The position numbers and the translations under genes were made by a program. Under the pieces are notes generated by a model that saw only the letters and a list, made by a program, of their open reading frames with translations, was not told the origin of the DNA and did not search any database. Source: a virus. From it: 64,000 nucleotides of DNA. The stretch lies in IMG/VR virus record IMGVR_UViG_3300024257_000005, positions 32,001 through 96,000 of that record, one strand, 5' to 3'. Shown piece by piece: positions 9,762 through 58,354 of this stretch; the first letter of the stretch is position 1, and the number at the start of each line of letters is the position of its first letter.

Positions 9762-11108
9762 ATGACTGACGTAGCAAAAAAGACTGAAACAAAAAAGAAA
9801 AAATTACTAGTTCTATCAGACGACATTCGTGTCCCATCAGGTGTGGGCACAATGACAAGACGAATCGTCTTAGACTTAAAGAAAGACTTTGATATAATCC
9901 AGCTTGGTGGAGCAATAGATCATCCGAATCCTCAACCTGTATTAGTAGATGGAATAAAAGTAATCCCAGTAAAAGGGTATGGCGATTCTCATATCGTTAG
10001 AAATTTAATCACAGTGGAACAACCAGACTATATGTTGATCTTTACAGATCCAAGGTACTGAATTTGGTTATGGCAGATCGAAGATGAAATCAGATCTATG
10101 GTTCCCTTAATGTATTATCATCTATGGGATGACTATCCTGCACCACAATATAATAGAGATTTTTATCTATCGAATGACTGGATGGGTTGTATCAGTAAAA
10201 TTTCAAAAGCAATGGTAGAGGAAGTGGCACCAGAATTTAAAGAGAATCCATGGCGCATAGACTATATTCCTCATGGCACTCCTCACGATGAATTTAAACA
10301 GGTTGACAAATCGTCTGTTGAATATCAGAAGTTCATACGTGAATACTACAAGGGTGAATATGAAAAGTATGATTTTATAATTTTTTATAACAATCGTAAT
10401 GTAAGAAGAAAAATGATGGGTGATGTTATGAATGCCTATGATGAATTCCTCAGTACACTACCACAGGAAAAGCAAGACAAATGTTTGCTATTAATGCACA
10501 CTCATGTTTCCGACGACAATGGAACAAATCTTGCAGCACTGAAAAACGACTTATATCCAAACCACAATATTCTATTTAGTGAAGCTAAAGTTCATACAAA
10601 CATTTTGAATTTCATCTATAACTCAGTAGATGTCACGATCAATCTTGCCTCAAATGAAGGTTATGGAATGGCAACGGCTGAATCACTTATGGCCGGCACT
10701 CCAATCATTGCCACAATTACAGGTGGAATGCAAGATCAATTAGGCATTCCCTTTGAGAATGATTTTATGTCAGTTGATGAATGGAAAGTATTGCAAGAGA
10801 ATGGTGAGTCATTTTTGACCTCACATCATGCTGTTGGTATTATTCCAAAAACTAGAAGCCTCCAGGGATCACCTCCAACTCCATATATCTATGATGATAG
10901 AATTAGTTGGATTGATGCTGCGCATGCTATTGAATATTGGTACAACAAGACACCAGAAGAGCGTGTTAAAGCAGGCGAATCAGGACGTCAATATTTAATC
11001 GAAAATGGTCACACAGTAACAGAAATGAACAAGCGTTTTAGGGCAGCAATTAAAGACATTGATGAAAATTGGGAACCCATTAAACGTGTAAATGTAATCG
11101 AGTGCTAA
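9762..11108 (+). CDS. GT-B (GT4-like) glycosyltransferase, one gene across in-frame TGA 10059-10061
   Basis: ORFs 9762..10061 and 10098..11108 are in one frame. The join reads FTDPRY[TGA]IWLWQIEDEIRSMVPLMYYHLWDD. EGYGMATAES motif present. Confidence 0.88.
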
Positions 11109-29739: not shown

Positions 29740-30768
29740 ATGAGTTTTAAAAAATATTCAAGCATCGATAATGCATACAGAGAAAAGACTGTAAACTACT
29801 ACATTATGCAAGGTCATACTCAAGGAATATGGAGAGGCCGTGAGAAAATTCATGGTGCTAATTTCCAGTTTGCATATAATGGCGGTGAAGTGAAAATTGG
29901 AAAGCGATCAGCATACTTAAAGCCAATTGAACACATTGGATTCTTTAGATCAGATGTCATTTACGACCGCTATATTAATTCAATTCACATCCTTGCAGCA
30001 TCTCTAGAAATGTCAGTTCCGGATGGAACACCTCTAGAGTTTACTATTTATGGAGAGCTCTATGGTGGTGTTTATCCTCATCCCGATGTTGAAAAAGATC
30101 CAGAAGGTAAACAGGTTCAGAAGGGAATCTACTATGCACCTGGGAATCATTTTGCTGCATTTGATATGAAGCTAAATGGTGAATTTGTTCCTGACGGCAG
30201 CTTTGAGGCTTTAATGGCTCTCATTGGAATGCCCGTTGCACCTATTCTTGTTGAAGGAACATTTGAAGAAGTGATGGCTTATACTAATGAAGGTCAATCA
30301 ATTGTTGGTGTGAGATTACATGGTCTTCCTCCTATTGAGAATAATGTAATGGAAGGACTAGTAATAAAGCCCATAATCCCACAGTATCTGAATGATGGCT
30401 CAAGGGTGATTCTTAAAAACAAGAATGAAAAATGGTCTGAAAAATCTAATAAGACTCGTGTTCCCAAGGCTGAAATAAAAATGACTTCAGAACAAAAAGA
30501 TGTTTATTTATTACTATCAAACAGAGTTACCGAGAATAGACTTCGTAATGTCATTTCACATTTTGGCAATGTGACAAACAAGGACTTCGGAAAACTTCTT
30601 GCATTAATGACTCAGGATATTATTACTGAGCACACTAAAGAAGATGAAGTTCTGCTTGCCTCAATGGAAGACAAGAAGGAACGTAAGCTATTAACTAAAA
30701 TGCTTAATGGAGATATTGCAACTATGGTTCGCAAGAATTTCTTAAACATAATTGACGGAGAATTTTAA
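29740..30768 (+). CDS. RNA ligase, Rnl2 family
   Basis: FKKYSSI, EKIHGANF, YGELYGG, FDM, EGLVIKP and LKNKN motifs. Confidence 0.92.
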   Translation: MSFKKYSSIDNAYREKTVNYYIMQGHTQGIWRGREKIHGANFQFAYNGGEVKIGKRSAYLKPIEHIGFFRSDVIYDRYINSIHILAASLEMSVPDGTPLEFTIYGELYGGVYPHPDVEKDPEGKQVQKGIYYAPGNHFAAFDMKLNGEFVPDGSFEALMALIGMPVAPILVEGTFEEVMAYTNEGQSIVGVRLHGLPPIENNVMEGLVIKPIIPQYLNDGSRVILKNKNEKWSEKSNKTRVPKAEIKMTSEQKDVYLLLSNRVTENRLRNVISHFGNVTNKDFGKLLALMTQDIITEHTKEDEVLLASMEDKKERKLLTKMLNGDIATMVRKNFLNIIDGEF

Positions 30769-33099: not shown

Positions 33100-33173
33100 G
33101 CTGGATTAGCTCAAGTGGGTAGAGCCGGGGTTTTGTAAACCTCAGGTTGCAGGTTCGAGGCCTGTGTCCAGCG
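33100..33173 (+). tRNA. tRNA-Thr(UGU)
   Basis: Cloverleaf, acceptor GCTGGAT/GTCCAGC, anticodon TGT. Confidence 0.9.
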
Positions 33174-33226
33174 CAGATGTTTTTTGACAAATTTTTTATT
33201 AATGGGTTCTACTCCCATCCAAGAAT

Positions 33227-33310
33227 GCCTCGGTGGCGGAATTGGTAGACGCGCTGGTCTTAGGCACCAGTCCCCGAAAGGGGGTGCAAGTTCGAGTCTT
33301 GTTCGGGGTA
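33227..33310 (+). tRNA. tRNA-Leu(UAG)
   Basis: Class II cloverleaf, loop CTTAGGC. Confidence 0.92.
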
Positions 33311-33558
33311 CATAATTTAATTTCATTTAGTTGTTTCATTTGACTACACTGGGGTTAGATTAATAAGGTAAAAAGTTATTTGACAATAAGGGCAATGAAG
33401 AAAAAGATAAAGTAAATGGGATGACACGGATTAACACATACACCCTCAAACAGGACACCCAAGTGGTACACCCTAAAGTAGGACATGCTTCCCCGTGCTC
33501 AAATACTTTTGATATAAAGAAGTGCTCCCTAGATCATTGGAATTTAGGGAGTTTATAT

Positions 33559-33633
33559 TCCGCCATAGCTCAGTCAGGTTAGAGCGCCGGATTGTTAATC
33601 CGGATGTCCTTGGTTCGAATCCAAGTGGCGGAG
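33559..33633 (+). tRNA. tRNA-Asn(GUU)
   Basis: TCCGCCA/TGGCGGA, loop TTGTTAA. Confidence 0.93.
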
Positions 33634-33768
33634 CATTGCAACAAAAACGTGGGCAACGGGTCGTAGTGTGTAGGTTGAGGATACTCATCATATGGAACTA
33701 GCTTATTGTGTCCGTGGGGTGCCATCTTGTTCTGCAGGACAATGTTGGAATCAACCTCAAAACTTTAA

Positions 33769-33843
33769 GCCTCGCTAGCTCAATTGGCTCAGAGCAGTGG
33801 CCCTTTAAGCCATTGGTTCCAGGTTCGAGTCCTGGGCGGGGTA
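33769..33843 (+). tRNA. tRNA-Lys(UUU)
   Basis: Cloverleaf, loop CCTTTAA (C33). Confidence 0.88.
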
Positions 33844-33864
33844 CAAAACGAAACTTAAAAATGA

Positions 33865-33945
33865 GTTGAGTAGACACCCTATGGGCCATATTGGATAAGA
33901 GGTCATTAGACAGCGCTACCAAAGGTTCGAATCCTTCGCTCAATG
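33865..33945 (+). ncRNA. Degenerate tRNA-like element
   Basis: Acceptor GTTGAGT/GCTCAAT and T-arm AAGG-TTCGAAT-CCTT are present; D and anticodon arms cannot be resolved. Confidence 0.4.
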
Positions 33946-34021
33946 TTGAAGATTTAAGTGGAAACTATTTGAACCAATATATCAATTGGCCAAACGATAT
34001 ATTCAAATAGGGTAGAATTAT

Positions 34022-34096
34022 CGAGGTGTGGCGCAGTCCGGTTAGCGCACTTGCTTTGGGAGCAAGGGGTCGTAGGTTCGAATCCTACTACCTCGA
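34022..34096 (+). tRNA. tRNA-Pro(UGG)
   Basis: CGAGGTG/TACCTCG, loop TTTGGGA. Confidence 0.93.
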
Positions 34097-34182
34097 CGAG
34101 TTGAGCTGCCAGTCCAGATTACGGAGGCTATTCCAATGACGGTTCGTCCGATGAAAGAAATAGCAACATGGCATTTTTAAAA

Positions 34183-34254
34183 CCTGAGGAAGTCTAATGG
34201 TAGAGGCTGGGCCCAGGAAGTCTGGTATAGCAAGTTCGATTCTTGTCTTTGGGA
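34183..34254 (+). tRNA. Atypical tRNA-like gene (loop CCAGGAA, nominal anticodon AGG)
   Basis: Acceptor CCTGAGG/CTTTGGG, D-loop AATGGTA, T-arm GCAAG-TTCGATT-CTTGT; many G-U pairs. Confidence 0.5.
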
Positions 34255-34259
34255 CAAAC

Positions 34260-34333
34260 GTGGCATTAGTGTAATGGTAACATTCCAGATTTCCAATCTG
34301 GGGTTGCGGGTTCGAGTCCTGTATGCCACACCA
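34260..34333 (+). tRNA. tRNA-Gly(UCC)
   Basis: Cloverleaf with encoded CCA. Confidence 0.92.
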
Positions 34334-34353
34334 ATAAAAAGAAAGGTTATATT

Positions 34354-34755
34354 ATGATCAAGGAACTTTATGAAGTAAGAGTAAATTTCACAATGGAGCG
34401 TGATGAATTTGAAAACGCTATTGATAAGATTCGAAATTGTATGAGAATCGAATTCAAAAGAGGAATTGCTTATGTTCCTGTTCCTCAGAATGCTCAACTC
34501 ATAATTACTAACATTGAAGATTATTCAACAGCAGTACATATAGAGCAAAAAATATTAAATAATGGGCCAGTGGTGAAACTGGTAAACGCAACAGGCTTAA
34601 GCCCTGTCGACCGTAATGGTCTTGTGGGTTCGAATCCCTCCTGGTCTACTTGGTCCATTAAACTAAATGAAAGGTTATATTATGCAAGCATGGGGACACA
34701 AAACTCTCGAACAGTTAGACAAAATGACTGATCAAAGATTGTTAGCTTATTATAA
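34354..34755 (+). CDS. Hypothetical protein whose frame runs through tRNA-Leu(UAA)
   Basis: GAAAGGTTATATTATG leader identical to that of 34682. No stop before the tRNA; TGA at 34729, TAA at 34753. Confidence 0.5.
34564..34648 (+). tRNA. tRNA-Leu(UAA)
   Basis: Class II cloverleaf, loop CTTAAGC. Confidence 0.92.
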
Positions 34756-34942
34756 GGCTATTAGAGTTCCACAATGGAATTATAATAGCTGGTATGAAAA
34801 CGACACTGAAGAATTCATTGAAGCTCAAGAAGCTTACATAGCAAAAGTTAAGATGGTTCTTGAAGATAGAGGACATGTAAAAACTCGTGGAAGAAAAGAT
34901 CCCCATGTAAATGACAATACAAAGGATCCAAAATTAAAATAG
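34682..34942 (+). CDS. Hypothetical protein
   Basis: RBS GAAAGG; stop overlaps the 5' end of tRNA-Asp. Confidence 0.6.
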   Translation: MQAWGHKTLEQLDKMTDQRLLAYYKAIRVPQWNYNSWYENDTEEFIEAQEAYIAKVKMVLEDRGHVKTRGRKDPHVNDNTKDPKLK

Positions 34943-35014
34943 GGCCGTAGCTCAATTGGTTAGAGCACCGGACTGTCAATCCGGAGGTTGGGGGTTCAAG
35001 TCCCCTCGGTCCTG
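34941..35014 (+). tRNA. tRNA-Asp(GUC)
   Basis: AGGGCCG/CGGTCCT, loop CTGTCAA. Confidence 0.92.
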
Positions 35015-35016
35015 CT

Positions 35017-35103
35017 GTGCATGTGGCAGATAGGTAATGCGCCTGGCCGTGGCCCAGGTTGGATAATATCCTCATGCGGGTTCAAATCCCGTCGTGCACC
35101 CCA
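35017..35103 (+). tRNA. tRNA-His(GUG) with long variable arm
   Basis: GTGCATG/CGTGCAC, C73, encoded CCA; loop CCGTGGC; 17-nt variable region. Confidence 0.82.
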
Positions 35104-35186
35104 CCCAGTAATGTCATCCAGGCATTGACACCGGATTGTAATCCCGGTTCCTAATGGAGTTGTAGGTTCGAGTCCTTCTACTGGGA
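35104..35186 (+). tRNA. tRNA-Tyr(GUA), C1:G72, long variable arm
   Basis: CCCAGTA/TACTGGG, loop TTGTAAT; atypical D-arm. Confidence 0.75.
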
Positions 35187-35207
35187 CAAATTTAAAATGG
35201 AGAATAT

Positions 35208-35837
35208 ATGACTGAAAATTTAGCATTTAAAGATGGCAAGTGGACTGAAAAATGGTTTGATCAGAATATTGAAGCATGGACTGAAGCAATCGATGGCTAT
35301 AAAAAATATGAAGGTGATATTAAATCGGTTCTTGAAATTGGATGCTTTGAAGGTCGAGCAACTGTCTGGCTATGCAATACTGTACCAACAATTGAAAAAT
35401 ATACAGTTATTGATACATTCAAAGGAAGCTTAGAAGAAAAAGGTATGGAACGAGCAAAAGATAATTTGACAAAAAATGAAAGTCATATCAGATCAAATTT
35501 TGAACATAATATTTCTAAATTCAGAGACAAAATTGATTTCACAATAGTTGAAGGTGAATCACAGAGTATGCTGCATGATATTAAAGGAAAATATGATTTC
35601 ATATATATTGATGGAAGTCATAGATCTGATGATGTTTTTATAGATGCATACTGGGCAGATAAATTATTAAATGTGAATGGCATAATGATTTTTGATGATT
35701 TTGGATGGACAAATCCCGATAGTGAATTATTAATTGATAGCCCAGGATTTGGAATTGGAGAATTTCTTACAATTCACACACATGATTACAATATATTTTT
35801 AAGAGGTTATCAACTCGGAATACAAAAAACAAAATAA
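35208..35837 (+). CDS. Class I SAM-dependent methyltransferase
   Basis: VLEIGCFEGR, YIDGSH and IFDDFGW motifs. Confidence 0.9.
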   Translation: MTENLAFKDGKWTEKWFDQNIEAWTEAIDGYKKYEGDIKSVLEIGCFEGRATVWLCNTVPTIEKYTVIDTFKGSLEEKGMERAKDNLTKNESHIRSNFEHNISKFRDKIDFTIVEGESQSMLHDIKGKYDFIYIDGSHRSDDVFIDAYWADKLLNVNGIMIFDDFGWTNPDSELLIDSPGFGIGEFLTIHTHDYNIFLRGYQLGIQKTK

Positions 35838-35905
35838 GGAGAATGCTATGAGCAATGGAGGAATCGGTCGATTTAGTTAGTTAAACTAAATCAAGGAGAC
35901 CGAAA

Positions 35906-36238
35906 ATGAGTAAGACCCAAAGAAGAAAAAAAGGACCAATCCCACAACATGTCACTCACGACTATGTAAAAGTAGGTGTTCGAATCAAAGAACATTATTA
36001 CATTTATTACTGGGAATGGTTGCCTATAAGTGAGGAAGATCAAAAAATAGCCATTGCAAAATACTATTCTGATACTGGAATTGGTAGAAAATGGCCCGTA
36101 CCAAGTTGGTATGCAAAAATGCTAAACAATGATTACAGAACAAAAGCCAGACACGAAATGCAAAAAATCAACTCATGGAAAGATTGGGAAGAATATGAAT
36201 TCGATCCAAAGCTTAATTGCAAAGGCTGGTACTGGTAA
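35906..36238 (+). CDS. Hypothetical protein
   Basis: AAGGAG RBS. Confidence 0.6.
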   Translation: MSKTQRRKKGPIPQHVTHDYVKVGVRIKEHYYIYYWEWLPISEEDQKIAIAKYYSDTGIGRKWPVPSWYAKMLNNDYRTKARHEMQKINSWKDWEEYEFDPKLNCKGWYW

Positions 36239-36287
36239 GATTTAAATAGTTTAGAGCTGTGGTTCTATTCAAAAACCATAGCCACAT

Positions 36288-36361
36288 CCCCTGGTAGCTC
36301 CAATTGGTAGAGCGGTACAGTGAAATCGTATGCGATGCTGGTTCAAGTCCGGCCCGGGGGA
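36288..36361 (+). tRNA. tRNA-Phe(GAA), atypical
   Basis: CCCCTGG/CCGGGGG, loop GTGAAAT, A31-C39 mismatch. Confidence 0.8.
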
Positions 36362-36363
36362 CT

Positions 36364-36496
36364 AAGAGAATGACCTACTAGGGCGACAAGCCTGCTCTAT
36401 CTTTGCCTCACTGAACCACATTCAGAAGAGGGTGATATCAGCGGTCCTAATTTCTTTGGAAAGCCTAAACTTGTGGAAGGCGGTACCTCTTCTCTT
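36364..36496 (+). ncRNA. Unidentified structured RNA candidate
   Basis: Closing AAGAGAA/TTCTCTT, then ACAAG/CTTGT and CCTC-CTGAA/TTCAG-GAGG helices; GC-rich and non-coding. Confidence 0.45.
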
Positions 36497-36500
36497 TTAA

Positions 36501-36577
36501 CGCGCATTGGTCTAGTCTGGTTCTAGGACGTCGGGTTTTCATCCCGAAGGTCACCGGTTCGAATCCGGTATGCGTGA
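36501..36577 (+). tRNA. tRNA-Glu(UUC)
   Basis: CGCGCAT/ATGCGTG, loop TTTTCAT. Confidence 0.9.
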
Positions 36578-36582
36578 CTAAT

Positions 36583-36653
36583 GGTCGGTTAGTGTAATGG
36601 TAACACCGCAGGTTTTGATCCTGCTATTATAGGTTCAAGTCCTGTATCGACTG
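36583..36653 (+). tRNA. tRNA-Gln(UUG)
   Basis: GGTCGGT/ATCGACT, loop TTTTGAT. Confidence 0.88.
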
Positions 36654-36658
36654 CATAT

Positions 36659-36731
36659 CGCACTGTAGCTAAATGGTAAAGCCCCCGGCTCATATCCGGA
36701 AGATTTGGTGGTTCAAGCCCACTCAGTGCGA
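36659..36731 (+). tRNA. tRNA-Met(CAU)
   Basis: CGCACTG/CAGTGCG, loop CTCATAT. Confidence 0.85.
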
Positions 36732-36742
36732 CAACAATAGAA

Positions 36743-36815
36743 GGGGCATTAGCTCAGCTGGGAGAGCGCCGCACTTGCACTGCGGAGGTCGCAGGTTCGA
36801 TCCCTGTATGCTCCA
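36743..36815 (+). tRNA. tRNA-Ala(UGC)
   Basis: G3:U70 identity pair, loop CTTGCAC. Confidence 0.95.
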
Positions 36816-36883
36816 CTTTGAGATAAGCAGAGAAAGAGCCTGCAATTTTATCTCAATAGTCCGGATAGCTCTGCCGGACACTC

Positions 36884-36954
36884 GGGTTATTAGTTCAATG
36901 GTAGAATACTCGCCTGTAAAGCGACAGATAGCAGTTCAAGTCTGTTATAACCCA
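36884..36954 (+). tRNA. tRNA-Tyr(GUA), G1:C72, short variable loop
   Basis: GGGTTAT/ATAACCC, loop CTGTAAA, 4-nt variable loop. Confidence 0.8.
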
Positions 36955-36961
36955 CAATAAT

Positions 36962-37033
36962 GCACCATGAGCTCGACGGTAGAGCAGCTGCCTGATATGC
37001 AGAAGGTACTAGGTTCAATTCCTAGGTGGTGTA
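36962..37033 (+). tRNA. tRNA-Ile(GAU)
   Basis: GCACCAT/GTGGTGT, loop CTGATAT. Confidence 0.82.
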
Positions 37034-37088
37034 CGAAACGAATCTCATTATAGGATAGCGTCCGACAATTAATTGGGATTCGTATTTT

Positions 37089-37162
37089 GGCTTCTTAGCT
37101 CAGTAGGTTAGAGCAGCGGATTCTTAATCCGAAGGTCACAGGTTCAATTCCTGTAGAGGCTA
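37089..37162 (+). tRNA. tRNA-Lys(CUU)
   Basis: GGCTTCT/AGAGGCT, loop TTCTTAA. Confidence 0.88.
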
Positions 37163-37216
37163 CAATCAAAACCATTTTTATAGTTCGAGTATATTTATAT
37201 TAAACAGGAGAATAAT

Positions 37217-37894
37217 ATGAATATATGTGAAAATTGCAAACAAGAGCATGATGGACAATATGGATCTGGTAGATTCTGTTCAGATAAATGTGCAAGAGGA
37301 TTTAGCACTAAGGCAAAAAGAAAAAACATTAATGAAAAAGTATCTAGAAAATTAAAAATTAATAAACCAATCAGATTCTGTAAGATCTGCAATGTAGAAA
37401 TTGGATCTAGAACGCAGCTTGGATATTGTCAAAAACACCTATATGAAAGTGAAGAATATAGATCTCTATTAAGAAAGCCCCATAAATCAGGGTCTGGTGG
37501 TTTGAGAACAGGTGGAGGAAGATCAAAGGTGTTTGAATATGATAGTAAATATGCTGGGTTAGTTAAGCTAAATAAACATGAAATTGAAGTTGCAAAAATA
37601 TTTGACTCATTAGAGATATTATGAAATCGTAACTGAAAAGGTTTTAGATATGTCGATCTAGAAGGTAGAGATAGAAAATATTATCCCGATTTCTATATTC
37701 CAGAATTTGATTATTATGTCGAATATAAAGGATGAGTTAATGTAGTTTTAAATCATAAGATGAACAATGCTGTTGAGCTTAATGATTTTAAATTATTAAT
37801 TATATATAGCGACGACAAGCGATACAGCCAGCTTGGACTATCGTTGTCAGAGCTTAAAAAATGTCCTCAAAAACTAATTAGAGGTATCGGTTAA
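37217..37894 (+). CDS. Zinc-finger plus PD-(D/E)xK (homing-type) endonuclease, 225 aa, with three in-frame TGA (37622, 37634, 37733)
   Basis: EIL[TGA]NRN[TGA]KGFRY..RKYYPDFYIPEFDYYVEYKG[TGA]. The catalytic PDF..EYK motif lies beyond the ORF-track stop. Confidence 0.85.
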
Positions 37895-37951
37895 TTGGCA
37901 AACCAACGCTCTCCAAAAGCGTGACTGGGAGTTCGAGTCTCTCTACCTCTG
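37880..37951 (+). tRNA. tRNA-Trp(CCA) with C9
   Basis: AGAGGTA TC GGTT AATTGGCA AACC A ACGCT CTCCAAA AGCGT GACT GGGAG TTCGAGT CTCTC TACCTCT G. Confidence 0.93.
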
Positions 37952-38014
37952 CAATATGTAAGTCCTATTATGGATGGCACCAATCAATAGTCCGTTCATT
38001 CTAGGCAATAATTT

Positions 38015-38102
38015 GCTCCGTTAGCTCAGTCCGGTATAGAGCGCCTGCCTTACAAGCAGGAGGCCTCCTAGGTTTACCTTGGTTCAAATCCAAGACGGAG
38101 TA
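38015..38102 (+). tRNA. tRNA-Val(UAC) with long variable arm
   Basis: GCTCCGT/ACGGAGT, loop CTTACAA; variable region AGGCCT-CCT-AGGTTT-AC. Confidence 0.85.
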
Positions 38103-38164
38103 CAAATAACTGTTTTATTCTCGCTGTTCTGGTGTATATTCTACCAACAACAAAAGGAGTTGAC

Positions 38165-38623
38165 ATGAGAACAATTAACATTTACACATTTGAGGAGCTT
38201 CCAACAGAAGTTCAGCAGCACATAATTAGCAGAAACAGACTAATATCTGTTCCTGAAGATTATGATGCACCAGCTCAAGAAGCTGCAAGGAGATTTGAAG
38301 TTGAGCTTGATGGCTGGAATGTCCACACATTAGAAGCTGGAGTTATCATCGGTGGACCTACCAAACTAAAGAAGCTTGCCGATAAATTTCTAATAGCTTC
38401 TGCATCTGATTCTGATATCTATAAAGAAGCTGAAACTTACTGGTTTGAAGGAACAAACGATATAAGATTTATTGCAACCGTTGAAAAGTTTTTTGCAGAG
38501 ATGCTCAGCAAATTATATTTCTCATACCAATCAGATTCAGCAGTTTATGATGGCCTTGTTGAACAAGGATGGGAATATCTTATTGAGGGAAAAGTATTTA
38601 GCAAAAAAACAAAAGGAAGCTAA
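38165..38623 (+). CDS. Hypothetical early protein
   Basis: Early promoter, AAGGAG and ATG 38165; IYTFEEL..WEYLIEG pattern common in phage proteins. Confidence 0.65.
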   Translation: MRTINIYTFEELPTEVQQHIISRNRLISVPEDYDAPAQEAARRFEVELDGWNVHTLEAGVIIGGPTKLKKLADKFLIASASDSDIYKEAETYWFEGTNDIRFIATVEKFFAEMLSKLYFSYQSDSAVYDGLVEQGWEYLIEGKVFSKKTKGS

Positions 38624-38992
38624 CATGACTTTTACAGCGTACAACCACAATGATACAGGTCTTTGTGAACCTACCACAAGGCAAGCCGCAATTAAAGAAT
38701 CAAAAGAATACACCTTTGCAACTGGTAATGAAAGCTATGTCGCCAATAGCAAAGGTGAAATTGTACATGAGAATGTAAGAGGATATTAAATGAGAGATAA
38801 GATATATGAAAACTGGGCTAAGTGTGATCCAGTTCTTAGAAAAAGTCTTCTAGAAGCACTAACAATTCCTGAGTTAAAATTGATGGGTAGCTATTTTGAT
38901 TATCCACTAAGAGGGAAAAAGAGTGAAATAGTTCATCAACTGATTGGATATTTTAAATCAAATGACAACTGGAAGGCTATCGCAAAATAAAT

Positions 38993-39072
38993 GCTCCCGT
39001 ATGCCAGCCGGTTACGAGCCGGTATAAAGCTAATTGGATAGGAAGATGTCAGTTCGAGCCTGACCGGGAGTT
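38993..39072 (+). ncRNA. tRNA-Arg(ACG)-like RNA with rearranged arms
   Basis: Acceptor GCTCCCG/CGGGAGT, arm GCCGG-TTACGAG-CCGGT, then D-loop-like CTA-ATTGGA-TAG, then T-arm GTCAG-TTCGAGC-CTGAC. Confidence 0.65.
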
Positions 39073-39134
39073 CATGTACACTATCCTAACGCGTTCACTC
39101 AGAGTGTACATGCGCAAATAGTGTACACATAGAT

Positions 39135-39209
39135 ATCGTAGTGGCTCGAAATGGCTTAGGCACCGGACTGCAAATCCGGATTATGGGGGTTCAAGTCCCC
39201 TCTACGATT
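39135..39209 (+). tRNA. tRNA-Cys(GCA)
   Basis: ATCGTAG/CTACGAT, U73, loop CTGCAAA. Confidence 0.9.
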
Positions 39210-39218
39210 CAAACCAAG

Positions 39219-39303
39219 GGAGGTTGTCCGGCTGGACGAGGAAGCTGTCTTGAAAACAGTCGGCGGGTAACACCGCTTGGGGGTTCAAGTCCCTCAGCCT
39301 CCG
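39219..39303 (+). tRNA. tRNA-Ser(UGA)
   Basis: Class II, loop CTTGAAA, G73. Confidence 0.9.
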
Positions 39304-50393: not shown

Positions 50394-50900
50394 ATGAAAG
50401 TAATATTTTTAGATATCGATGGTGTATTGACTACAGCAACCTGGGCATCAAACTATAGAGAATTTAATCCAGTTTGCACTAATGGATTATTGAAGATATT
50501 GGATGCTGATCCAGAAATTCAGCTTGTGATCTCGTCAACTTGGCGAGGTGGAAAGAAAGATAGCGTCATTGATCCTGAATCAAGATTGTATCGCGAACTT
50601 GAAAAATATGATCTCATTAAAAAGCTCCACAAGGACTGGCAAACTATACATCTCTATGATTTAAGTCGTGGACACGAAATTCAAGATTGGTTAGATCGAC
50701 ATCCTGAAGTAGAGAACTATGTAATTCTTGATGATGATGGTGACATGCTTGATGGTCAAAGAGAACATTTTGTTCATACAGCAACTTGGGATGGGATGCT
50801 TTTAGCACATCTTGATCATGCTATTAAAATATTTGGTATTGAGATGGATGCTGTAAAATGGAACAAAGATTTCATTGAATGTAAACTTATCAAGAAATAA
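50394..50900 (+). CDS. HAD phosphatase (Swiss-army-knife RNA-repair type)
   Basis: FLDIDGVL, ISSTWR, RGHEIQDWL and YVILDDD motifs. Confidence 0.85.
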   Translation: MKVIFLDIDGVLTTATWASNYREFNPVCTNGLLKILDADPEIQLVISSTWRGGKKDSVIDPESRLYRELEKYDLIKKLHKDWQTIHLYDLSRGHEIQDWLDRHPEVENYVILDDDGDMLDGQREHFVHTATWDGMLLAHLDHAIKIFGIEMDAVKWNKDFIECKLIKK

Positions 50901-51415
50901 AAACCGATAATCGAAGGACCTATTGCATATTTCACTATATACAATAACCCATAATCAGAGGAGAAGAAGAATGCAAGACGCACAGTTCAAAATAACCGAA
51001 GTGAAAGCTTCAAAGCATGGAAATACACACCAAGCTTACCGAGTTGTGGCACCAACAAGTAAAAGTTACTACGATCGGAAAAGCATGTCAATCAGTCGTG
51101 AAGAATATCACGAATTACAGAAGCTGGACAAAGATTCTACAAATGTAGTTGTTCAGTTTATTAATCCTGACACGGAGAAGATTGATGATAAACCGTTTTT
51201 CCATGGCAAGCTACGAACATTCCTCCAGAAGGAAGTTAATATCACTGGAGAGTATGTAATCTTTTGGCTATATAAACCTGCCGAGAGTTAAAGTTGTTCT
51301 ATAGAGATCTTATAGATCTGTTAAAGTGGTTCTATTTTTATTTGACTTGGACGAAATAACTGTTTCATCCAAGTCATCTCTATAGTATATTGTGGCAACA
51401 AACAAAGGAGTTGTT

Positions 51416-51943
51416 ATGCAAAAAATCACACATAAAGAGTTAGTTGAAAAGCTAAATCAATATCGTGGAGTTACATTCATTTCATGTTCAATCGAATCAC
51501 CGGTCAAAATGGCCAAAGGTGGACGAGCTGGACGAGCAATAAATCCCTACCATGAACAGATTACAAAAGCTTCTTATCTCAATGGAGCTATTGGATTTGA
51601 CTATGAAAAGTCAGTAAATAACCAACGTGGAAAAGAAGGCGTTGAAGAAGTTTTTGAATCCAAACCAAGGGCTTGGGGAACGGTCATGGAAGGTGGAAAA
51701 TTTGTTGAGCATAAAGGTAATTTCTATCTTCAGCTCAAGGTTGAGAATGTTGGTGTTGATTCGGTTCAATATTTCAATGAAGGTCAAGCAATTGATCCAG
51801 AGCTTCTTACTGAATGGCTTCCCAAGAAACGTGAAGGTTCAGGACGGCAAGATGTTGAAAACGAGATCATCCTTCGTGACATCAAATTGGCCAGTATTAA
51901 ATCAATCAAATTTGGAAAAGAAGAATATGAGGTAACAGAATAA
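51416..51943 (+). CDS. Conserved phage hypothetical early protein
   Basis: Early promoter and RBS; YEKSVNNQR..WG..HKG.FYL. Confidence 0.65.
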   Translation: MQKITHKELVEKLNQYRGVTFISCSIESPVKMAKGGRAGRAINPYHEQITKASYLNGAIGFDYEKSVNNQRGKEGVEEVFESKPRAWGTVMEGGKFVEHKGNFYLQLKVENVGVDSVQYFNEGQAIDPELLTEWLPKKREGSGRQDVENEIILRDIKLASIKSIKFGKEEYEVTE

Positions 51944-52867
51944 TGAAAGATACAGACATAAAATTCACAATTGGCGGGACAGAGATTAACACAGCTGACC
52001 TTACATATAGGCAAAAACAGGTCGCTCGAAACAGTTCAAAGTGGATTGGTTTTGCAATCATATGGATGGGAGCAGGATTCTGGGTTGCATTTGGTGTATT
52101 GCTTGTGGCAATCTTTGTAAATCTCGAACTTATCCCAGATTAGACCTTTCATCTAATCGTTTTGAAGTGTATATTCAGGTAACAACAAAAGGAGTTCGCA
52201 ATGAATAAAGCAACAATGATGAGAAAAGACCTCTCGAAAAATCCCAAATCTTTCACCAGTTTTGTCAAAGAAAATTATCAGAAGCTTATGACATTATCGT
52301 CAAATCCTGAAGATCTTATTTCTTTTATTAATGAAGAAACCAAAGGCTTTAGCGTATCTGAAAAATATCGGAATGCTTTAACTGAAAAGCTTATGTCCGG
52401 CTCAGTAACTCAGAATCAGTACTACCTTACAAATGCATATTTGACCGGAAAAGGTCTGAGCGTAGCAGGTATCTAATGGACTATAATCTAGATAAACTTA
52501 AAGATGGAGTAGTAGCACTGGCAATGGATAGGATCAAAGTAATGCTAGACGCAATGGGTGAAAAAGTGGGACCTGGCAATTTGAACTTGATTAAAACTGA
52601 ACTTGACAGGGCATATTTAGATGGCAGTATTGATGTCATCAACGCAATAAAGGAGATTAAGAGATAATGTGTATTTGTGGTGGAGTTGTAGAGGTCTCAA
52701 TCGGTGCATTTCTATTTGGACTGATTGCAGGACTATTAAAGAAGTTTAAGAATAAAAAGAAGACATGTCATTGTCCAGAAATTGATCATCATTTCAATTT
52801 AGATGACTAAAACTGTTTCATTTGGCGCTGCAGGGTGTATATTATGGTAACAACAAAAGGAGTTAAC

Positions 52868-53191
52868 ATGATTACAAAGAATGAAAGAATCGCAACAAAA
52901 GCTTATGAAAGACTCGTCAAGCCTATGATGGAGAGGTACAATGAGTCAGTTGAAATGAGTCATGCAATCGATTTTGGTGAGTTCAGCACGGTTGATTTCC
53001 CAGATGAAGAACATGAAGCCTTGCTTCAAAAGGTTGCATCACGTTTTGGTATGACAAGTGATAGATTGTTCACGACCTCATACATGGCATCAGAAGAATA
53101 TGAAGAGCATGCTCGTGAACATAGAGTTTGGATAGATCCAGCCGGCGGAACACATGTTGGCTTTGAAGATCCAGCAGCAATGTATGCTTAA
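52868..53191 (+). CDS. Hypothetical early protein
   Basis: Early promoter, AAGGAG and ATG 52868. Confidence 0.6.
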   Translation: MITKNERIATKAYERLVKPMMERYNESVEMSHAIDFGEFSTVDFPDEEHEALLQKVASRFGMTSDRLFTTSYMASEEYEEHAREHRVWIDPAGGTHVGFEDPAAMYA

Positions 53192-53203
53192 AGGAGATCA
53201 AAA

Positions 53204-53557
53204 ATGGGATTAACACTGTGGCTGGCACGTAAATGTGGCTATGAACAAGAGATCAATTCGAAGCCATTCAGGAAAGAGCTGTATCAATTCTTTCATTGGA
53301 ATAGAGAAGTGAATTTTGGTTCCAATAGCTTAGGTGATCACGACTATCTCCATGATATTCATGACGTCACTGCAAAGATCAATGCCGACAATGAATATAT
53401 TGTCACAATTAAGACTACTCGACCTGGGTATATCATTGGTGCCAAGGGATGGCTTATCACTCAGATTCAGCTTTATATGCAGGCACAGTTCCCTGATAAA
53501 GTATTGAAAATACATATTGAAGAAACACGACTATGGGCAGAGCTCTGGAGAGATTAA
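53204..53557 (+). CDS. Type II KH-domain protein (uS3-like)
   Basis: VTIKTTRPGYIIGAKGWLITQI..KIHIEE. Confidence 0.75.
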   Translation: MGLTLWLARKCGYEQEINSKPFRKELYQFFHWNREVNFGSNSLGDHDYLHDIHDVTAKINADNEYIVTIKTTRPGYIIGAKGWLITQIQLYMQAQFPDKVLKIHIEETRLWAELWRD

Positions 53558-53754
53558 TGTGAGCATTGAAACATTAGTTGCATTAATAGAGTTCACAGGC
53601 GGTGACGCCACGGACATCATTGAGTGGCATAAGGCTGAAATCGTTCTTGACAAAATAACTAAAATTATAACAGAGAGCAAGCACGGATTTGAAAGCCCAG
53701 TTGCAAATGTCAATATCATAGAAGCATTATTGGAATATAAAAAGGACTAATAAA

Positions 53755-54741
53755 TTGACAAAACAAAAATCTGTAAAATTAGTACTCATGAGAGGAATAC
53801 CAGGGTCTGGTAAATCTACAAAATCAAAAGCAATGGTTGCTAAAGATCCAAATAGCTGGGTTAGAATAAATCGAGATGATTTTCGATTTATGATTAACGA
53901 CTATTTCTATGGCAATATGAGAGTAGAAAATTTGATTTCAAAAGCAACACACCGAATGGCTGAAGATGCTTTACGTGCAGGATTCAATGTTATATCTGAC
54001 GATATGAACTTGAGACAAAAGTATGTTACTGAATGGCACAATATTGCTGAAAAAATTGGTAATATTACTGTTGTTGAAAAATACATGGACATCACTCTGA
54101 AAGAAGCGCTTAAAAGAGATTTGACTCGTGAAAAGAAAGTCGGAGCTGATGTAGTTAAGAACCAGTTTAATAAATATGTTAAGAATATGAAAATTCGTGA
54201 AGAGACATATTACCCACCAGTTGATAGAGCTGGACAGTACATTGTTCAAGATGAATCATTACCTAGAGCAGTTATCTGTGATATTGATGGAACAGCAGCT
54301 CTTATGAATGGAAAGCGTGGACCTTTTGAATGGCACAATGTATTCAGAGATGATGTGAATAAACCTGTAGAAGAGTTGATTAAAATAATTCAAAACAGTA
54401 ATGATTTCGTTGGCTATGGTTATGAGTTAGCTGGTGAGACACAAGAGTATGATGATGTAAAAATGATCTACTTATCAGGTCGTGATGGAGCAGCAAAGGA
54501 TGAGACAATCCGCTGGTTCAAAGAAAAGATGAAGATCGAAGTTGTCTATGGTGACAATCTATTCATGAGAGCACCAAATGATCAACGCAAAGATTCTATC
54601 ATCAAGCAAGAGCTATATGATGCTCACATCAGAGGGCAATATAATGTTCTATTTGTATTGGATGATAGAAATCAAGTAGTAGACAACTGGAGACAAGAAA
54701 TTGGACTACCAACATTTCAAGTAGAATATGGAGATTTCTAA
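53755..54741 (+). CDS. pseT: Polynucleotide 5'-kinase/3'-phosphatase
   Basis: GIPGSGKST, NRDDFR, CDIDGT, SGR and LDDRNQVV motifs. Confidence 0.93.
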   Translation: MTKQKSVKLVLMRGIPGSGKSTKSKAMVAKDPNSWVRINRDDFRFMINDYFYGNMRVENLISKATHRMAEDALRAGFNVISDDMNLRQKYVTEWHNIAEKIGNITVVEKYMDITLKEALKRDLTREKKVGADVVKNQFNKYVKNMKIREETYYPPVDRAGQYIVQDESLPRAVICDIDGTAALMNGKRGPFEWHNVFRDDVNKPVEELIKIIQNSNDFVGYGYELAGETQEYDDVKMIYLSGRDGAAKDETIRWFKEKMKIEVVYGDNLFMRAPNDQRKDSIIKQELYDAHIRGQYNVLFVLDDRNQVVDNWRQEIGLPTFQVEYGDF

Positions 54742-55033
54742 AATAACGGTTTCATTTGTTAATGCAGTATAGTATATTGCAGTAACAACCAAAGGAGTAC
54801 ACAATGAAATGGTTACAAAAATTCAAAAAAGGTCATCTTATTGAGCCATTCATTTATGTAGATTTTGACGATAGAATTGTCAGGGCACACAGAGGTAATA
54901 GAATCAAATGGCTTGAAAAGCATTACATCTATTCATTTACATTCCAAGGTGCTGTTCATGCGACAAAGAAATTAACCGAAAAGAAATACCCACAATATGC
55001 TGGGTCAATTTATTATTTTTAGAAGGAAGCAAT

Positions 55034-55813
55034 ATGTCTGACATTGTAAAATATATCAAAGATTTTGAGAAAGAGAAATTGCTCTACCTTGTTCTTGCAG
55101 GGTCACGAGGATATTCAACTCACACAGATGAGTCTGACTATGATTATCGTGGGGTGTTTGTGAATACTAAGGAAGAAGTAATTGGTAGCCTAACGCGAGA
55201 TAAACAAAAATACTGGCCTGACACTGAAGATGCAATGCTCCATGGTTTGCAAAAATTTGTTAAGCTGGCCTCAAATGCAAGTCCTAATGTCATTGAACTT
55301 TTATTCATGAATGGTACGGCAGAATATATTCATCCCTTGTTTGCAAAATGGTTCCTTGACAATCGTGATGACTTTTTATCTCTAAAATGCTATAATAGTT
55401 ACTCAGGATATGCTTGGGGACAGGTTCAACAAAGCAAGCATAAGTCTTCTCATGGATCCTTACGTGAAAAATATAAATGTGGAGATCCTCAAGATCCATA
55501 TGATTCAAAATATGCAATGCACACAATTCGCATGATGTATAATGGATTAGAAATTATTCAGACTGGGATGTTAACTCCAAATTTCAAGGATAGCGGCCTT
55601 CTTACCGTTTTACAAGAGATTCGGAAAGGTGATTTCTATAAAAATGCTACTGAATTTTATCAGCATGTAGAAAGCCTTGATGCTGACATTAAAAAATCAC
55701 ATGAGCATGCTTCAATTGGAAAGTGGCTTCGTGAAGAACCAAGTCGGGATCGGATGAATGAATTACTAATTGGATTCTATGAAGAACTTTGGTATTCAAA
55801 ATGAAATATATAA
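55034..55813 (+). CDS. Pol-beta superfamily nucleotidyltransferase (RlaP-like); ends 55804 if TGA terminates
   Basis: GSRGY..SDYDYRGVF, PNVIELL and KYAMHTIR motifs. Confidence 0.85.
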
Positions 55814-56144
55814 TATTATTGGCATTCATTGGTTTGGTTATTGAAGCTCGATATCAAATTGAGAAAATGAAAAACAAGCCATTCAGCGATGAAAATTCTG
55901 AATATGACCAATCGATGAAGATTAATCAATATGTTGTTTTTCTAAAAGACTATCAATCGGAAGAGCAGAAGAATATGCGACAGGAGAAATATAACAAGGG
56001 TGAAGTTGTGACTGTTCGGCATATATCAACTGGAGTTGTGGGCCCAATCCAGATTGAATACTTAAATGCTATTGATTATTCTATGATTGTTGATAATGCA
56101 GGATATACAATTATGAGAATCATACCAATTGAAAGGTAGATATA

Positions 56145-57245
56145 ATGAAGATTAAAATACCACAAGAACTAATTGACGAGCGATATATCAGGTTTCAGAA
56201 GCATCCGACTCTTGATTTATACATCTACAATTATACTCACAAATGTCAGTTCGAACAGAATTGGAATGAGTGGACTATGATGTGCCGTGGTTTGATCCTT
56301 GATGGTGAAGGAAATATTGTTTCACGCCCATTAAAGAAATTCTTCAATCTTGGCGAAGGTGAACATACTCTTGAGAATCTTCCAAAAGGTAATTATACAT
56401 TGACGAAGAAAATGGATGGATCATTCCTAGAAATTGTTAAATGGGATGGATATGTTGTTGTAGCTACTCGTGGCTCATTCGAATCTGATCAGGCTGAACA
56501 TGCTATGAAAGTTCTTAACGAAAAACACCCTGACATATTTGAATTGGATAAATTTCAAGAAGGATTGACATACATCTTTGAAGTGATCTACCCAGAAAAT
56601 AGAATTGTTGTTGACTATAATGGATATGATGATCTTGTCCTATTGACTATTGTTGAGAATGAAACTGGGTATGAATATCCAAATTACAAAAACAATGCTC
56701 TTGGATTTGATGTTGTTGAAACTCTAGAAGGTAAGTGGGATTTTGATGAGATCAAAGAGCTTAATACTGAAAATGAAGAAGGATGGGTTGCACACTGGCC
56801 AGGGTCAGACAACTATCGTGTGAAGATCAAGTTTGCCGACTATGTTGAATTGCATAGAATCGTAACTGGATTATCAGAGCTAAGCATCTGGAGACTGTTG
56901 GGTCAAGGAAATAATATCAATGACATTATTGACAAGGTTCCTGACGAACTATTTAAATGGGCTCAAACAATTGTGACTGCTCTCTGGAAAGAATATCACG
57001 CAATTAAAAAACAAGTTGAAGATGATTATAGCAAAGCTGTTGCAAGTGTGTTTGATCTTGCATTGCATAAAGAAGGCGAACCAGTTCGAAAAGACTATGC
57101 AGTTGAATTTACTGGATATAAATATCCCGGAATGATGTTTGCAATTCTTGATGGAAAAGAATTTGAAAGCAGAATCTGGCCCTTAATCAGACCGAAAGCA
57201 AATGAAATCAAAGAAGTCTCAGAACTTCCCAAATGGAGTAACTAA
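56145..57245 (+). CDS. RNA ligase, T4 Rnl1 family
   Basis: CRGLILD, KKFFN, KMDGS, TRGSF, FEVI, EGWV and KIK motifs. Confidence 0.92.
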   Translation: MKIKIPQELIDERYIRFQKHPTLDLYIYNYTHKCQFEQNWNEWTMMCRGLILDGEGNIVSRPLKKFFNLGEGEHTLENLPKGNYTLTKKMDGSFLEIVKWDGYVVVATRGSFESDQAEHAMKVLNEKHPDIFELDKFQEGLTYIFEVIYPENRIVVDYNGYDDLVLLTIVENETGYEYPNYKNNALGFDVVETLEGKWDFDEIKELNTENEEGWVAHWPGSDNYRVKIKFADYVELHRIVTGLSELSIWRLLGQGNNINDIIDKVPDELFKWAQTIVTALWKEYHAIKKQVEDDYSKAVASVFDLALHKEGEPVRKDYAVEFTGYKYPGMMFAILDGKEFESRIWPLIRPKANEIKEVSELPKWSN

Positions 57246-57541
57246 TGTATCAAGAATTTTATCATGATGAATATGAAGATCACTTGGCAGAACGAGCTAT
57301 GTGGGACTGGCTAGATAAATGGTGGTGGACACTGATCCCAATTGTTCCACTAATTCCATTTTTAGTTATAGGGATTGGTGTTTATGCACTAATTTTTGGG
57401 AGTTAATAAAACCGACTTTTTGCTCTTTGATATATATTTATACATAACTCGAATCCGTTTAACGTGAGGCATGAAGACCTTTAGAGTTGTTACATGATAG
57501 CAACAAAATGTTAAGTGGAGATATTAATAAGGAGACACATC

Positions 57542-58354
57542 ATGAACACTACTCAAAGAGTGGGCACTCAGCCCGAAGCACACATTTCAATTGACAAAAA
57601 CAGATTACAAAGATTCCGTGGAAAAGTATATCTTTCTGACAAAGCCAAGTTTGAGATTGAACTATTCAATCCAACTCAGCGCCGTTATGGAGTCAAATTT
57701 CTATTCAATGGGGAATACATGTCTAATCGACATTTGATCATAGACCCAGGCCAACGTATTTTTCTGGACAGGTTTATTGAAACAAAGAAACGATTTGAAT
57801 TTAACACATATGAAGTGGATGATTCACCAGCTGCAAAAGCAGCAATCAGTAAGAATGGATTAATAGAGGTAGAATTTCATCAAGAAAACGATCCTATTCC
57901 TCTATTGAATAACACAACCAACTGGCCAGCACAGTTTACATATACTGGAGATTGGTTTGGATTTCACGGCAATACATTTGATCAGTACAATACGACAATA
58001 AGCAACAGTGGTGGAATATCAGAAAATACTACTGTAAATTATTGCAGCACCAATCTCAATCAGAGTCCAAAGAAGAACGCTAGACATAAGCTGATGAGAT
58101 CAATGGCAGCACCAGAGCCAATTGAGACAGGAAGGATTAATAAGTCGAATGAAAATTCTAATCAAGAATTTCAAAGTGTTGAGGCTGATTTTAACTGGAT
58201 TGTAGATACAAAGGTTGTTTTGCAATTACTTCCAATTAGTCTTCAACCAGCCAATCAAAGAGACTTGGTGCAGTATTGTCCTGTTGATGGCACTAAATTC
58301 AAAAAGGGATATAATTTCTGTCCCAAATGTGGAAAGGCTAAAGATTGAAAATAA
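57542..58354 (+). CDS. Conserved hypothetical protein with C-terminal zinc ribbon (ends 58348 if TGA terminates)
   Basis: AAGGAG RBS; EIELFNP and FCPKCG. Confidence 0.7.

Follow-up and report, generated by a model that had tools for sequence, protein, structure and literature searches.

An A9C mutant of E. coli tRNA-Trp was reportedly described by Smith and Yarus in 1989, and a tRNA-Trp(CCA) whose anticodon stem has 4 bp, the Blastocrithidia type, is said to have been reported by Kachale et al. in 2023. In E. coli tRNA-Trp, the substitutions A9C and G24A (the latter known as the Hirsh suppressor) promote reading of UGA, acting through the D-arm hinge, from which A9C removes two hydrogen bonds (PMC13092985); the initial annotation of the locus studied here had taken this effect of A9C and G24A as its starting point, and it is as stated in that work. 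The same study surveyed bacteria for tRNA-Trp(CCA) with a 4-bp anticodon stem, and some bacteria in which UGA encodes Trp were found to have only a tRNA-Trp(CCA) with a 5-bp stem (PMC13092985). When RF2 is weakened in E. coli, ~80 % of UGA sites receive Trp from the wild-type tRNA-Trp(CCA), an effect that depends on A37 (PMC11903333). The established means of TGA recoding in phages is a tRNA(UCA), although one is detectable in only 35 % of near-complete TGA-recoded (code-4) phages (Borges et al., bioRxiv 10.1101/2021.08.26.457843).

The window analysed here is a stretch of 64,000 nt, bases 32001–96000 of a 105,677-bp IMG/VR phage contig whose completeness was estimated by CheckV at ~50 %. Positions are those of the window unless stated otherwise. 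It contains a tRNA-Trp(CCA) gene that had been proposed to act as a natural UGA suppressor of the A9C type, with the following features.

37880–37951, + strand: tRNA-Trp(CCA) gene, 72 nt to the discriminator G73 (ARAGORN; Rfam RF00005)
37887–37888, + strand: U8 (37887) and C9 (37888), from the sequence in register with the Rfam alignment
37889–37904, + strand: D arm, stem GGUU (37889–37892)/AACC (37901–37904) and loop AAUUGGCA (Rfam alignment)
37913–37915, + strand: anticodon CCA in the loop CUCCAAA, with A36-A37-A38 present (ARAGORN; Rfam alignment)
37923–37926, + strand: variable loop GACU, 4 nt, 1 nt shorter than that of E. coli trpT (Rfam alignment)

The gene scored 55.6 bits with RF00005, compared with a gathering score of 29, and in the Rfam alignment, which set the register, all four stems were fully paired in a cloverleaf with the conserved T and D loops. 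The acceptor stem is AGAGGUA/UACCUCU; the D stem is made up of G10-C25, G11-C24, U12-A23 and U13-A22, with an 8-nt D loop, and is followed by A26; the anticodon stem ACGCU/AGCGU has 5 bp, with A27-U43 paired; and the T arm is GGGAG-UUCGAGU-CUCUC, with G73 as the discriminator. ARAGORN and the Rfam alignment thus bore out the anatomy given in the initial annotation (U8-C9, GGUU/AACC, U12-A23, a 5-bp anticodon stem and CCA). The identity set of E. coli TrpRS has been given as G73, CCA and an A1-U72 type acceptor end (PMC2965240), and in the Rfam alignment the phage tRNA possesses G73, CCA, A1-U72 and G2-C71. To judge from its sequence, it is a bacterial-type tRNA-Trp that is predicted to be charged.

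In this phage TGA codes for Trp, above all in genes of the tail and baseplate. When ORFs were delimited by TAA and TAG, in-frame TGAs were found in long genes at the two ends of the contig (genome 1–12.3 kb and 96.8–105.7 kb), whereas the replication and nucleotide-metabolism genes between these ends had none. The recoded end regions (genome 1–12326 and 96833–105677; loci L001 and L002) lie outside the window and include an ORF of 1094 aa with six in-frame TGAs. TGA made up 31–53 % of Trp codons in tail genes and was nearly absent from replication genes, and TGG and TGA together occurred 13.9 and 11.4 times per 1000 codons in the two end regions, which matched the frequency of TGG alone in the centre (13.5). 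Frames remained open for a median of 70–76 codons past TGA-ending ORFs, compared with 8–9.5 codons after TAA or TAG. Every TGA-ending ORF can run on to TAA or TAG, and therefore no gene in the contig needs TGA as a stop; in the ORFs of 256 aa (55034–55804) and 277 aa (57515–58348), a TAA or TAG stands 1–2 codons past the TGA.

In the tail sheath and a T4-type baseplate protein, Pfam domains extended across TGA codons. TGA-570 of the sheath lies within the motif YYP-W-VQ, where Trp is aligned in most homologues (seven in a stricter tally); with the exception of one ambiguous contig (L014), the homologous sheath genes were without in-frame TGA, and the sheath relatives in IMG/VR (≤ 52 % identity) use the standard code. 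Similarly, none of the 23 homologues of the baseplate wedge found in IMG/VR at 35–40 % identity had an in-frame TGA. Over all sites with an alignable homologue, the residue aligned with TGA was W in 20 of 45 cases. The codon contexts of sense TGA and TGG did not differ significantly (+4 position, p = 0.15).

TGA is also used by a few genes in the centre, among them a glycosyltransferase gene, a gene for a SWIM protein and one nuclease-like ORF; the in-frame TGAs inside the window are at 10059, 11392, 37622, 37634 and 37733.

9762–11108, + strand: glycosyltransferase gene; PHROG and Pfam matches span its in-frame TGA at ~10059
37184–37894, + strand: nuclease-like ORF, 236 aa in TGA=W translation, with in-frame TGAs at 37622, 37634 and 37733

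The glycosyltransferase TGA was aligned with W in nine of 11 homologues. In the nuclease-like ORF, matches to phrog_22215 and phrog_9019 cover residues 119–211, across the TGAs, and the tRNA-Trp gene begins within this ORF, the overlap being the last 15 nt of the ORF. Its product resembles PD-(D/E)xK nucleases and Holliday-junction resolvases, and all three of its Trp positions are TGA. The sparseness of TGA in replication genes and its abundance in tail genes fit the model of timed recoding in a standard-code host (bioRxiv 10.1101/2021.08.26.457843).

The tRNA-Trp(CCA) gene belongs to a long array and was the only Trp tRNA seen in the contig.

33100–42856, + strand: array of 27 tRNA genes for all 20 amino acids, with GroEL upstream and a 714-aa gene downstream (ARAGORN, Rfam)

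All 27 tRNA genes and the phage tmRNA are on the + strand, and the array looks complete. No relatives of the 714-aa protein were found in IMG/VR. The search for a tRNA(UCA) and a release factor advised in the initial annotation was run over the 105 kb and returned neither: none of the tRNAs called by ARAGORN or Rfam in the contig, those of the array included, had the anticodon UCA, and no release-factor domain was encoded. A class Ib synthetase domain (TrpRS) was likewise not encoded in the 105-kb contig. Scanning the contig for hairpins of the UCA anticodon type gave nothing tRNA-like, and a scan for perfect acceptor and T arms gave, besides the called tRNAs, only two elements (34183–34254 and 38993–39072) and no UCA decoder. 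The first of these is degenerate and below threshold (23 bits), with perfect acceptor and T arms and no ARAGORN call; it was considered as a hidden UGA decoder and rejected because it has no UCA loop. The second, also with perfect acceptor and T arms and without an ARAGORN call, is an odd tRNA-Arg(ACG)-like element in which the ACG anticodon arm stands before a D-loop-like hairpin. No capsid, portal or terminase gene was recognized among the ORFs scanned (about half of all ORFs, including those at the contig ends), so that the head module is apparently missing from the contig; since the contig is also only about half complete, the UGA decoder could sit in the missing part.

The tRNA-His (87 nt, 35017–35103) and tRNA-Val (89 nt, 38015–38103) both have a long insertion in the variable region. 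A dense set of RNA-repair genes (49618–57245), encoding cREC_REC, HAD_SAK_2, a PNKP kinase-phosphatase, an RlaP nucleotidyltransferase and an Rnl1-type ligase, adjoins the phage tmRNA (59118–59475, tag GTNYAIAA), and an Rnl2-type ligase is encoded further upstream (29740–30768).

C9 by itself is not unusual in phage tRNAs, occurring in ~10 % of 784. Of 76 distinct phage genes for tRNA-Trp(CCA) that were sampled, 42 had A at position 9, 25 had G, six had C and three had T. The survey of tRNA arrays (loci L066–L145) revealed strong covariation between position 9 and the 12-23 pair, A9 going with U12-A23, G9 with G12-C23, and C9 with C-G, A-U or U.G. Among 229 class-I phage tRNAs with U12-A23, 219 had A9 and none had C9, which makes the combination present in this tRNA-Trp(CCA) a rare and otherwise avoided one. 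The C9 plus U12-A23 tRNA-Trp pattern was also found in none of 401 Bacteroidota genomes, a control pattern with purine 9 having matched in 18 of 26. The caution that the tRNA-Ser(GCU) of this phage (at 40763) has C9 as well was correct as to the base, but its pair, read from the sequence, is C12-G23, so that its C9 is of the common kind and the two cases are not equivalent. C9 in phage tRNAs goes mostly with a 4-nt variable loop (56 of 67); the idea that C9 is a mere correlate of this loop was rejected, as Trp tRNAs with A9 and G9 mostly have 4-nt loops too.

Pattern scans of IMG/VR yielded 13 distinct C9 and three distinct U9 tRNA-Trp(CCA) sequences of one type. The 16 sequences of this family have in common U8-Y9, GGUU/AACC, A26, GACU (CACU once) and G73, and the D arm is invariant, whereas the acceptor, anticodon and T stems vary freely in sequence, with many compensatory changes. 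Pairing in these stems is complete but for three positions (5/7 in one acceptor stem and 4/5 in one anticodon stem). A fixed core combined with freely varying but paired stems indicates that the core is under selection and is not a recent mutation, and C9 would be an inherited trait of the family and not a change made in this phage. The family is apparently phage-borne. A limited literature search found no published description of it, and its novelty is not firm.

The contigs of 11 other carriers of C9 with U12-A23 (G001–G005, G010 and G415–G419) were fetched whole. They are 41–215 kb in length, several being 83–100 % complete, and have few proteins in common with the phage studied here. None of the 11 was TGA-recoded: TGA ended 4–77 genes in each, and the extension past TGA-ending ORFs was 2.5–12 codons, similar to that past TAA and TAG. 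In G415, whose tRNA-Trp is nearly identical at nucleotides 8–47, 53 of 151 genes (35 %) had TGA stops. G418 and G419 were TAG-recoded and possessed a tRNA(CUA), yet TGA was still a stop in both. These two genomes of ~120 kb each (loci L593–L598 and L599–L605) had a coding density of 0.52–0.65 under code 11, and their TAG-ending ORFs extended by a median of 33–35 codons. Three further phages with a C9 tRNA-Trp and other 12-23 pairs (G007–G009) used the standard code.

Avoidance of TGA stops was also looked for. The share of TGA among stops was fitted on GC content in 54 purine-9 loci, and the residuals were compared with those of 12 phages with C9 (the whole genomes G007–G009, three loci with other 12-23 pairs, and six of the 11 contigs above); relative to the GC-matched purine-9 loci the mean residual was 0.001 (Mann–Whitney p = 0.93). 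In six family genomes, a backup TAA or TAG within 5 codons of the stop was more frequent after TGA (43 %) than otherwise (31 %, p = 0.006), but this was rejected as a signal of the family because GC-matched unrelated phage loci showed the same or more (46 versus 27 %). Suppressor-type tRNAs were seen in standard-code phages without visible recoding, with a CUA (amber) anticodon in G001 and G008 and a UUA (ochre) anticodon in G007, so that presence in a standard-code phage is not by itself proof that a tRNA is inert towards stop codons. The survey of position 9 in recoded and standard phages that the initial annotation had suggested found that C9 does not track recoding, and the link between the two mostly fails.

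A single true relative was found, which is TGA-recoded as well and does not have C9. It is represented by three IMG/VR fragments (G420–G422) with a GroEL of 70 % identity, ~12 syntenic genes in common with this phage and a similar tmRNA tag (GTNYAYPVAA in G420 and G422, compared with GTNYAIAA). In G420, TGA-ending ORFs extended by a median of 52 codons compared with 6.5–8, and in-frame stops in its baseplate homologues were aligned with W. The tRNA-Trp(CCA) of the relative (L607:3390–3464) has A9, G12-C23, U11-A24 and a 5-nt variable loop, and there was no tRNA(UCA) among its 31 tRNAs, the array being cut by the contig end. An 86-nt tRNA-like element in G422 (L607:3109–3194; 27.6 bits) has U8-C9; its D region is enlarged by 18 inserted nt, its central arm is AU-rich, and it shows no clear anticodon. 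Together these phages represent a small TGA-recoded clade in which the tRNA arrays are full and show no UGA decoder.

On balance we favour, with some reserve, the reading that the tRNA-Trp(CCA) at 37880–37951 reads UGG in the ordinary way and belongs to a phage family that is unusual yet conserved. It would be a working gene with UGG decoding as its main job; C9 would be a family inheritance not tied to UGA recoding, and any reading of UGA by this tRNA would be of the ordinary near-cognate kind that is open to any tRNA-Trp(CCA) with A37. C9 is probably not what rewrites the code.

This leaves two leading options for the UGA decoder: a tRNA(UCA) encoded in the half of the genome that is missing, or any tRNA-Trp(CCA) reading UGA as a near-cognate with RF2 curbed. 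It is possible, although we hold it only tentatively, that a conventional tRNA(UCA), perhaps of odd shape, is encoded in the unsequenced part and decodes UGA without any part being played by the tRNA-Trp(CCA). Such a tRNA is the established route in phages, and the incompleteness of the contig, with the head module apparently missing, gives it room; yet the 27-tRNA array looks complete without one, none was present among the 31 tRNAs of the recoded relative, and only 35 % of near-complete TGA-recoded phages have one (bioRxiv 10.1101/2021.08.26.457843). A similarly tentative case can be made for near-cognate reading of UGA by the tRNA-Trp(CCA) of phage or host, combined with a phage function that curbs RF2, in which C9 would be incidental or of modest help. 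The ~80 % Trp at UGA in E. coli with weak RF2 depends on A37 (PMC11903333), and the phage tRNA has A36-A37-A38; bacteria with UGA=Trp and only a CCA tRNA-Trp exist (PMC13092985); two related recoded phages have different tRNA-Trp(CCA) types and no UCA; and no gene in the contig relies on TGA as its only stop. However, an RF2 antagonist is neither known nor identified in this phage, the contig encodes no release factor, and TGA and TGG showed no significant difference in context.

The proposal that the phage recodes UGA through the body of this tRNA survived in part. The reading of TGA as Trp, the absence of a UCA anticodon from the contig and the unusual nature of C9 with U12-A23 all stood, but C9 as the decoder was not supported. 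We consider it unlikely that C9, by removing the 9:12:23 triple and loosening the D-arm hinge, makes an efficient UGA-decoding tRNA-Trp(CCA) that is the recoding route of this phage. The configuration matches A9C with U12-A23, which promotes UGA reading in E. coli (PMC13092985), it is otherwise avoided in phage tRNAs (0 of 229), the tRNA is the only one for Trp seen in a contig without a UCA tRNA, and suppressor tRNAs do occur in standard-code phages (G001, G007 and G008). Against this, the same type of tRNA was present in 11 phages with TGA as a normal stop and without TGA-stop avoidance, among them G415 with its almost identical core and 35 % TGA stops, the TGA-recoded relative has A9, and the hinge is not that of E. 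coli at 11-24, 13-22 and the variable loop. Equally improbable, in our judgement, is that the family with pyrimidine 9 and U12-A23 represents a natural design, loose at the hinge and with raised wobble at the first position, whose UGA reading would be restrained by RF2 in most phages and which would act as the UGA decoder here together with a block of RF2. Loose-hinge reading, if true, would account for part of the ~65 % of TGA-recoded phages that have yielded no suppressor tRNA. A CCA tRNA that read UGA through a change in its body would keep full recognition by TrpRS and be invisible to annotation.

It is very unlikely that the host itself is code 4 (UGA=Trp) or lacks RF2, which would spare the phage a decoder, for although TGA is never the sole stop of a gene in the contig, it is nearly absent from replication genes while making up 31–53 % of Trp codons in tail genes, and the phage GroEL is closest to those of Bacteroidota, Ignavibacteria and Chlorobi, groups that use the standard code. 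Similarity of tRNA-Trp and tmRNA gave no host match among five Bacteroidota-group genomes.

What is of value here is the existence of a conserved phage tRNA-Trp family that carries the otherwise avoided C9/U12-A23 combination. Like canonical bacterial tRNA-Trp(CCA), for which E. coli and Bacteroidota were used in the comparison, the phage tRNA has the cloverleaf, CUCCAAA, G73, A1-U72, the D loop AAUUGG and the T loop UUCGAGU; it is unlike them in the pyrimidine at position 9 with U12-A23, the D stem GGUU/AACC and the 4-nt GACU loop. Like the phages with tRNA(UCA) of Borges et al., this phage reads TGA as Trp, with recoding concentrated in late genes, but in contrast to their opal suppressors the anticodon is CCA and not UCA, and the contig yielded no UCA tRNA. 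With the Blastocrithidia-type tRNA it would share the concept of a CCA tRNA-Trp that reads UGA via a change outside the anticodon; unlike that type, it has five standard anticodon-stem pairs, with A27-U43 intact, and not a stem of 4 bp.

The closest comparison is that with the A9C mutant of E. coli. E. coli trpT (RefSeq genome) has A9, U11.G24, U12-A23, C13-G22, C27-G43 and a 5-nt variable loop. The phage tRNA-Trp resembles the mutant in its CCA anticodon, C9 facing U12-A23, 5-bp anticodon stem and G73, and its T arm is identical to that of trpT. C9 opposite U12-A23 is thus shared, but the rest of the E. coli hinge is not: the phage tRNA has G11-C24 in place of U11.G24, U13-A22 in place of C13-G22, A27-U43 in place of C27-G43 and a variable loop of 4 instead of 5 nt. 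As the hinge differs at these four further places, the effect of A9C in E. coli cannot simply be carried over. Moreover, A9C in E. coli is a point mutant, whereas the phage tRNA-Trp occurs naturally and belongs to a conserved family, whose occurrence tracks neither TGA recoding nor avoidance of TGA stops. The other carriers of this type of tRNA use TGA stops normally.
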